The translations under genes and the position numbers were made by a program. The notes beneath the pieces are model-generated. The model did not search any database, had not been told where the DNA came from, and worked only from the letters and a program-made list of their open reading frames with translations. From IMG/VR virus record IMGVR_UViG_3300025010_000008: DNA of 64,000 nucleotides; one strand, given 5' to 3'. Below, piece after piece: positions 19,700 through 21,014 of the stretch (position 1 is the stretch's first letter; each line of letters begins with the position of its first letter). This stretch comes from a virus.

Positions 19700-20382
19700 T
19701 GCAACCTTTAAAGATTACGGCAAAAATGCAGGATGGAAGGGTAGCGGGAACCGATCCATATTTCCCGCTTGACAGCATTATGGCCGCCGAGTGGATGCGG
19801 AGAAATCATCCGGAAGCGTACTACAATGCCAGCAGTCACTTACTGACCAACGATCTAATTGTACCGGATCTACCGCTTGCCCGATGCGGAGAAGGCGAGG
19901 ACTGGTATTTTGCGTGCAGCTTCAATACAGTGCCTTCTCAAAAAGAATACGTCATGCACTGGCACAAACGTTTTGACGATCACCTTGACCAGCACATTGA
20001 TTTCAAGGGCAAACGTGGCAAGGTTGATATTAAATCCGGCAAAAACAAGGCGTACCGGATGCCGCTTGTCGTGCAACTATTCGATAGGCTAGAATGGTTC
20101 GCTGTTGGCGATCTAGAAGCTGTACGCGAACTGACTGAGGTTGCTACTCATATCGGCAAAAAATCAAGTCAGGGACTTGGAGCAGTAGAATGCTGGACTG
20201 TTGAGCCATGGCCGGATGATTGGAGTCTAGTCAGGGACGGAAAATTGACCAGAGCTATTCCCGTTGAGTCAGGATTTCCTGAAGGTGTCAAAGAGTCTAG
20301 GATTGCGCTATATGGAATCAGATCCCCGTACTGGCACACCTCGAACCAAAGAGTCTGTATGATGCCGGAGGTGGTAGTATGA
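19699..20382 (+). CDS. csf3: Csf3-like Cas5 RAMP subunit
   Basis: The ATG at 19699 overlaps the TAA of cas7 by 1 nt. The N-terminus MQPLKITAKMQDGRVAGTDPYFPLDSIMAAEW resembles the Csf3 pattern. Confidence 0.5.
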   Translation: MQPLKITAKMQDGRVAGTDPYFPLDSIMAAEWMRRNHPEAYYNASSHLLTNDLIVPDLPLARCGEGEDWYFACSFNTVPSQKEYVMHWHKRFDDHLDQHIDFKGKRGKVDIKSGKNKAYRMPLVVQLFDRLEWFAVGDLEAVRELTEVATHIGKKSSQGLGAVECWTVEPWPDDWSLVRDGKLTRAIPVESGFPEGVKESRIALYGIRSPYWHTSNQRVCMMPEVVV

Positions 20383-21014
20383 TCAAGGTTAGATTACCTG
20401 TCAAATTTAACGACGGCAAACAGCTCTATGATGCAGCACTAAAACTCATTGGCCGGGTATCGCCGGTGATGGCACAGATCATCCATTCAAAGCCAGACTT
20501 TAACCCGTTTAGTGTGCAGTTGCCGGACATTATCTGCATCATGGAACCAAGCCTTGAAATAGCAGTTAGTCAGTTGCCGAATACGGAAATAGTTTCCCAG
20601 ATGGATTTTAGAGAGTGTTTTACTGAAAACCCGGCAAGCCTGATAGAACTGAGTTTCCTAAACACGTTTTTCAAAAAAGCTCAGACTTCTTATCCCTTAC
20701 CCGATCCCTGGTTAATGATTGGAGCATGGAAAAACCGCTGGAATAGCTTATTACCCGCTCGTGTGGGTATAGAAATACCTATCGAAAATAAAAGAAAGTC
20801 CGAAAAAATACAGGTTAGGCGGGCAAATATAAACACATTACGCGTGCAGATAGCCGACTATCAGCCGAATATAGCTTTTTGCGGTAGCGTAAGACTAAAG
20901 TGGTTGGGGGACGAAAAGGAGTTGCGTGAGTTTGTTGCACTGGCCAGGTTTGCTGAGTTTTCCGGGACTGGCGCAAAAACTACTATGGGGTGCGGGGTGA
21001 CACGGCTTGGATGA
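20379..21014 (+). CDS. cas6: Cas6-like RNA endonuclease candidate
   Basis: 211 aa with an ATGA overlap to the upstream gene. It has the C-terminal glycine-rich loop FSGTGAKTTMGCGVT (Cas6 GxGxxxxxGxG signature) and an N-terminal IHSKPDFNPFSVQL segment. Confidence 0.5.
   Translation: MIKVRLPVKFNDGKQLYDAALKLIGRVSPVMAQIIHSKPDFNPFSVQLPDIICIMEPSLEIAVSQLPNTEIVSQMDFRECFTENPASLIELSFLNTFFKKAQTSYPLPDPWLMIGAWKNRWNSLLPARVGIEIPIENKRKSEKIQVRRANINTLRVQIADYQPNIAFCGSVRLKWLGDEKELREFVALARFAEFSGTGAKTTMGCGVTRLG

Follow-up and report, generated by a model that had tools for sequence, protein, structure and literature searches.

The DNA analysed here, referred to as the window, is a 64,000-nucleotide stretch of an 80-kb viral contig (IMG/VR record IMGVR_UViG_3300025010_000008) from groundwater-type metagenomes. 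The contig carries tail genes, a serine recombinase and replication genes, and its carrier is a temperate phage; no relatives were found among GenBank phages. After the phage endolysin gene (assigned by PHROGs) comes a plus-strand operon with the order csf1-cas11-csf2-csf3-cas6-cysH-membrane protein. Its genes abut or overlap and are flanked on both sides by terminator-like hairpins: one lies between the endolysin gene and csf1 (17333-17348, +; pattern scan), and the other closes the operon (22704-22723, +) and is followed by a consensus sigma-70 promoter at 22810-22838, both of the latter from pattern scan only. The same operon is present in a sister phage. Between the tail and lysis genes of the window, a 72-nt non-coding stretch (15342-15413) is 87.5% identical in the sister phage and is probably a promoter or operator.

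The first four genes of the operon encode effector subunits. csf1 (17368-18063, +) specifies a Cas8-like large subunit of 231 aa that matches PADLOC Csf1_0_IV (E 7.9e-37), PF27781 and, below the cut-off, TIGR03114 (E 2.3e-18). It is followed by cas11 (18064-18528, +; small subunit, 154 aa; Cas11_2_IV, E 5.5e-47), csf2 (18521-19699, +, by gene call; Cas7 backbone, 392 aa; Csf2_0_IV, E 2.3e-70) and csf3 (19699-20382, +; Cas5, 227 aa; Csf3_0_IV, E 1.7e-49, and PF27782). Positions 19499-19699 encode a C-terminal extension of Csf2 of about 65 aa that the sister protein, 89% identical and 327 aa long in L001, does not have. Downstream of cas6, the cysH-like gene (CasCysH; 21007-21774, +; 255 aa; PF01507, E 2.2e-25) encodes a PP-loop, SFGKDS, at residue 43 and a single cysteine, Cys177. 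The protein is without the C-terminal catalytic Cys, a described feature of IV-B cysH-like genes (PMC8175902). A second gene with a PAPS-reductase domain is located in the replication region (60370-61080), away from the operon. The last operon gene (21767-22705, +) encodes a multi-pass membrane protein of 312 aa. A Pfam search with this protein gave no match, and the ESM Atlas returned viral clusters (0.96) and an SSF-bearing cluster (0.93) in which 36% of the members carry PF00474, a weak lead towards a sodium:solute symporter fold. The membrane-protein gene occurs only in some related loci; its product is 55% identical to that of the sister phage, diverging as fast as Cas6.

Two ribozymes were found downstream of the operon, both above the gathering score: an HDV-like ribozyme (RF02682, 49.6 bits) at 24196-24266 (+) and a type II hammerhead (RF02276, 47 bits) at 29755-29814 (+). 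Ribozymes 0.5-0.8 kb downstream of IV-B operons also occur in the sister phage (twister-sister) and in L092, and are absent from most IV-B loci. These ribozymes and Cas6 share the same end chemistry. Their presence near IV-B operons may merely reflect phage early-gene regions.

The gene of main concern here, cas6 (20379-21014, +), sits between csf3 and cysH, as originally predicted; its start overlaps the csf3 stop (ATGA) and its end overlaps the cysH start by 8 nt. The 211-aa product is a true Cas6 of the PF10040 kind. It scores 52.8 bits against Pfam CRISPR_Cas6 (PF10040, E 6.9e-14; cut-off 25 bits), and ten PADLOC Cas6 models match it. The match to TIGR01877 (E 9.8e-10) lies below that model's cut-off, and that to PADLOC Cas6_6_IVD is weak (E 5.8e-9). 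An AlphaFold model built from ten homologues (pLDDT 79) comprises two RRMs in a double RRM/ferredoxin fold. In a structure search with this model the best five matches were all Cas6 proteins, aligned over the full length, with Z from 15.8 to 11.3: Thermus Cas6A came first (Z 15.8, rmsd 3.3 over 195 aa, 21% identity), followed by S. thermophilus Cas6 (Z 15.0) and a type IV Cas6 (6njy; Z 14.0), with much lower scores for Csf5 and Cas6e. An N-terminal Cas6 profile alone found nothing in the PDB; a profile alignment with 85 canonical Cas6 proteins spans all 211 residues. The original prediction had suspected a real Cas6 from a glycine-rich C-terminal loop and a Cas6-like N-terminal segment. Both quoted motifs are present, and the suspicion was borne out by the profile matches, the predicted fold and the intact-looking catalytic residues.

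In the alignment with canonical Cas6, H36 falls on the conserved His of the LH..KPF motif and Y17 on a conserved His upstream. H36 is kept in 18/18 homologues, position 17 is Y or H in all 18, and position 99 (K99 here) is basic in 17. The Gly-rich loop at 196-206 has the form GhGxxxxxGhG, and its residues G196, G198, G204 and G206 are invariant in the same set. For comparison, TtCas6A uses Arg22/His37 and TtCas6B His23/His42, with the stem read by Arg129 (PMC3902920). The 19-residue spacing of Y17 and H36 is that of His23/His42 in TtCas6B (PMC3902920), and the equivalence of these residues derives from profile alignment and spacing, not atomic superposition. K99 sits in a hairpin motif that we take to carry the equivalent of TtCas6 Arg129, which would make it the basic residue that reads the stem. 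From the conservation of H36, Y/H17 and the loop glycines, and from their alignment to the canonical and TtCas6 active site, we infer that the phage Cas6 is probably an active endoribonuclease. The protein is also compact: two deletions in its first RRM leave it about 50 aa short of its canonical relatives, whose median length is 266 aa.

With csf1, cas11, csf2 and csf3 all in one operon, the system is of subtype IV-B and not IV-A or IV-D. No DinG, RecD, Cas10-like subunit or cas1/cas2 was found among the operon's neighbouring genes or the scanned large ORFs of the 64-kb window of the 80-kb contig, and the operon has neither the RecD helicase nor the associated class 1 array that define IV-D. 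Reviews describe IV-B as without Cas6 and arrays (PMC8175902; PMC11656645), and the original prediction took both absences as given. The absence of an array holds here in that no class 1 array of the operon's own was found in the window, whose sole array belongs to Cas12m. The absence of Cas6 was overstated: IV-B loci typically have no Cas6, and one survey lists 12 cases with Cas6 as rare exceptions kept within IV-B (Pinilla-Redondo et al., 2020, PMC7038947). The present locus falls among these exceptions, and the arrangement of IV-B plus Cas6 is thus already known and uncommon.

The array in question was first described as an orphan at about 27467-27870, to which Cas6 might be linked. Repeats are indeed found there, as a six-repeat array at 27461-27870 (+), followed by a terminator at 27922-27939 (pattern scan). 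The array is not an orphan, because it begins 77 nt past the stop of a cas12m gene (25699-27384, +; 561 aa; RuvC D-E-D motifs; PDB 23vw Cas12m, E 1.9e-164; PADLOC Cas12u1, E 5.9e-141) and its repeats keep the Cas12m repeat family and pseudoknot. The 37-nt repeats are strongly divergent in sequence yet retain the pseudoknot, and the same repeat family follows three Cas12m relatives (54-61% identical; L138-L140) in unrelated settings. The two-helix pseudoknot has 98% of cells paired and compensatory change at 9/9 pairs, a result reached in 0/500 shuffles, a control that leans in its favour since the structure was drawn from the same repeat sequences. With a Cas12m gene directly upstream and pseudoknotted repeats of the 36-37 nt length expected of type V-M, the array belongs to a separate system of this type. 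Its spacers are irregular (16-72 nt), and several contain TATAAT/TATACT-like words; no convincing target was found for them in the window, the records G001 and G002, or the loci.

It is therefore highly improbable that Cas6 processes this array so that the IV-B complex and Cas12m share guides, as originally proposed. Both systems do reside on one phage, and the minus strand of the repeats offers a Cas6-like geometry, a stem of 3-4 bp and, after it, a tail of 8-9 nt (for example ATTGTAAC). However, the same antisense geometry recurs in the Cas12m arrays of L138-L140, which have no IV-B nearby, and the would-be 8-nt antisense handle is the most decayed segment of repeats 3-5. The G-U wobbles in the repeats favour the plus strand, the one likely transcribed, on which the stems leave 14 or 2 nt and no 8-nt handle. 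Family and pseudoknot both mark the repeats as belonging to Cas12m, an enzyme that processes its own precursor RNA and retains about 30 nt of the pseudoknotted repeat (PMC11013384), and terminators and a separate promoter stand between the IV-B operon and the array. The sister phage and the complete provirus G002 keep cas6, and no cas12m or array was found in either (for the former, in a 67-kb record that is 83% complete). No other Cas6-bearing IV-B locus examined carries such an array.

The closest relatives of the phage Cas6 fall into four 50%-identity clusters at E < 1e-30, after which canonical Cas6 proteins appear from 1e-23; the best canonical match comes from a type I locus that also contains cas3, cas4, cas1 and cas2. 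These relatives form a compact clade on one branch (support 96/94), with members 37-59% identical. Every context read is an IV-B operon, phage-like wherever the flanking DNA sufficed, and no broken cas6 copies were seen in the clade. What is added here to the known arrangement is the compact clade itself, whose members occurred exclusively in IV-B operons wherever the context could be checked. In the open-access literature, no paper was found on this clade or testing a Cas6-bearing IV-B system.

Cas6 is present in 14 of 46 related IV-B lineages, counted as distinct Csf2 lineages with a visible csf1-cysH core, a share biased upward by a query alignment that drew on Cas6-bearing loci. Seven have Cas6 of the compact clade, two another PF10040 Cas6, four Cas6e and one Cas6b, and no array of its own was found in any of the 14. 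This distribution suggests that phage IV-B systems carry Cas6 more often than the 12 published cases imply, in a sample biased to Cas6-bearing lineages. The Cas6e and Cas6b genes lie in or beside their IV-B operons (L077 4460-5059, L096 8797-9366, L045 8780-9499, L106 4662-5291 and L089 10704-11411), and further Cas6e-like Gly loops are found in the partial loci L099, L107, L109, L110 and L111. Other variations include a second, divergent csf1-csf3 pair in the IV-B operons at L014 7153-11631 and L077 1036-6439, and a radical SAM gene between cas6 and cysH in L005 (10804-12123). In the next-closest Csf2 relatives (74-78%) csf3 abuts cysH, and no cas6 was found near the only one that is fully visible, L058; cas6 is thus an optional gene.

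The sister phage has its operon in the same slot. Between the two phages the core proteins are 82-92% identical (Csf1 92%, Csf2 89%, CysH 87%), whereas Cas6 is only 55% identical. Likewise dN is 0.38 for Cas6 and 0.05-0.14 for the core genes, a protein change 3-7 times that of the core, with dS near saturation throughout. A dN of 0.38 against saturated dS indicates purifying selection, but faster change. The data do not reject a shared clade of the two Cas6 proteins (p-AU 0.31); with dS saturated as well, a recent cas6 swap and fast evolution are indistinguishable for this pair. In L005, Cas6 is 57-59% identical and Csf2 only 30%, a contrast in sequence identity that does point to movement of cas6 between operons.

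The substrate of Cas6 was sought in the phage DNA. No class 1 array or mini-array was found near the Cas6-bearing operons of 11 lineages or in the whole G001 and G002 records. A two-copy repeat in G001 was rejected as an array: it belongs to a 407-nt element that occurs as two inverted copies well away from the operon. Solitary class 1 repeats searched by pattern occur at 0.20 per kb in Cas6 loci and 0.15 in the comparison set, five loci of which turned out to hold other Cas6 families, and represent background. Upstream of an IV-B operon with no detected Cas6, at about 4 kb, L087 has a seven-repeat class 1-like array (21-443).

The main rival to the host-transcript reading developed below is that Cas6 cuts a phage-encoded RNA missed by repeat finders, such as a single repeat-like hairpin or an mRNA hairpin, and so provides the IV-B complex with one or a few fixed guides. 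This is possible and on balance doubtful. An archaeal virus IV-B with a mini-array has been published (PMC10541130), and Cas6 could be changing fast because it follows a phage-specific RNA. In addition, a single perfect type I-B repeat (5925-5954; Rfam CRISPR-DR2, 45.7 bits) lies some 900 nt upstream of csf1 in L081, a Cas6-bearing IV-B locus of the same clade. This repeat, however, runs directly into a terminase gene fragment, as in assembly chimeras with host arrays (L069), and may be either a real solitary repeat or such a chimera. Searches of the window, G001, the complete provirus G002 and seven further Cas6 loci turned up no counterpart, and no common intergenic motif emerged among 11 Cas6 loci, a comparison of low power with crude gene calls. 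The L069 sequence is itself informative: it is an assembly chimera in which two type I-B repeats (29-125) lead straight into the cas11 gene of an IV-B phage, and it shows a type I-B host spacer that targets cas11 (L069/L068). The gene matched is that of a related phage, so a class 1 array exists in at least one host of this group.

The reading we favour, with roughly even confidence for and against, is that Cas6 cuts host CRISPR transcripts in trans and feeds or diverts crRNA. Here the temperate phage would co-express an optional, probably active Cas6 with array-less IV-B effector genes. By analogy with known Cas6 biochemistry, the enzyme would bind a short stem-loop in repeat-like RNA and cut at the base of the stem; the cut would leave a 5′ handle on which Csf3, Csf2, Cas11 and Csf1 could assemble. 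The least certain step is the substrate, presumed to be the host's CRISPR transcript, the simplest source for an operon without an array in cis. The crRNAs would then be passed to the Csf complex and either sequestered, as counter-defence, or reused as guides, with CysH as a putative partner. The conserved active site, the purifying selection on cas6, the restriction of its clade to IV-B operons in the contexts read, the occurrence of several Cas6 families in array-less IV-B operons and the host I-B spacer all speak for this reading. Against it stand the relatives in which csf3 abuts cysH, together with L058, and the fact that hosts with class 1 arrays normally own a Cas6. Moreover, crRNAs produced by an adjacent I-E Cas6 were not enriched in the IV-B complex of M. 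sp. JS623 (PMC7937560), and several type I subtypes show negative co-occurrence with IV-B (PMC7937560, PMC7038947).

Cas6 might instead pass on no guide: it could cap the Csf filament, block maturation of host repeats by binding them, or be a dispensable gene on its way out. Its presence is patchy on the Csf2 tree, where the PF10040-type label requires at least 4 changes, and its position varies, cas6 being the first operon gene in L006/L014. The shortened protein and its place, with the membrane gene, among the fastest-diverging parts of the operon fit the same idea. Catalytic residues that are invariant over a clade only 37-59% identical, in which every copy seen is intact, argue otherwise and make such a role unlikely.

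Broadening the host-transcript reading, we tentatively suggest that phage IV-B systems may be RNA-guided and may have repeatedly recruited Cas6 families (the compact clade, Cas6e and Cas6b), each matched to a host or phage repeat RNA, to load crRNAs for counter-defence or silencing. If so, Cas6 would yield the first physiological RNA of an IV-B complex. The RNA content of type IV-B complexes has long been in question, and the sole solved IV-B complex reportedly assembled on random RNA. Cas6 enzymes recognise specific sequences and often remain bound to their product; an IV-B operon with an intact Cas6 is therefore a direct handle on IV-B RNA, and the value of the finding lies in this experimental handle.

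Among known systems, the Cas6 itself most resembles Thermus thermophilus Cas6A and Cas6B (4c8y, 4c9d; PF10040), with which it shares the double RRM, the active-site His of the alpha1-beta2 loop, the basic hairpin residue and the Gly loop. It differs in being 27-55 aa shorter through two deletions in the N-terminal RRM, in lacking a cognate array and in forming a separate clade. The neighbouring 561-aa protein and its pseudoknotted 37-nt repeats are akin to type V-M (MmCas12m2 8hhl, GoCas12m 8pm4, 23vw), from which the window's array departs by unusually divergent repeats and irregular spacers; this system is separate from Cas6. IV-D combines an IV-B-like core with Cas6, a RecD helicase and a CRISPR array. 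The phage operon shares its Csf core and Cas6, but is without RecD and a class 1 array and has a cysH-like gene. The 12 Cas6-bearing IV-B loci (PMC7038947) have, as described, the same IV-B core, cysH and Cas6 with no array; no function was tested in that study. Finally, the JS623 IV-B system (PMC7937560) likewise combines the four effector genes with a cysH-like gene on a mobile element, and no DinG/RecD, cas1/cas2 or class 1 array was found with either operon. It is carried by an actinobacterial plasmid, whereas the operon described here belongs to a temperate phage and adds Cas6, a membrane-protein gene and a C-terminal extension of Csf2.
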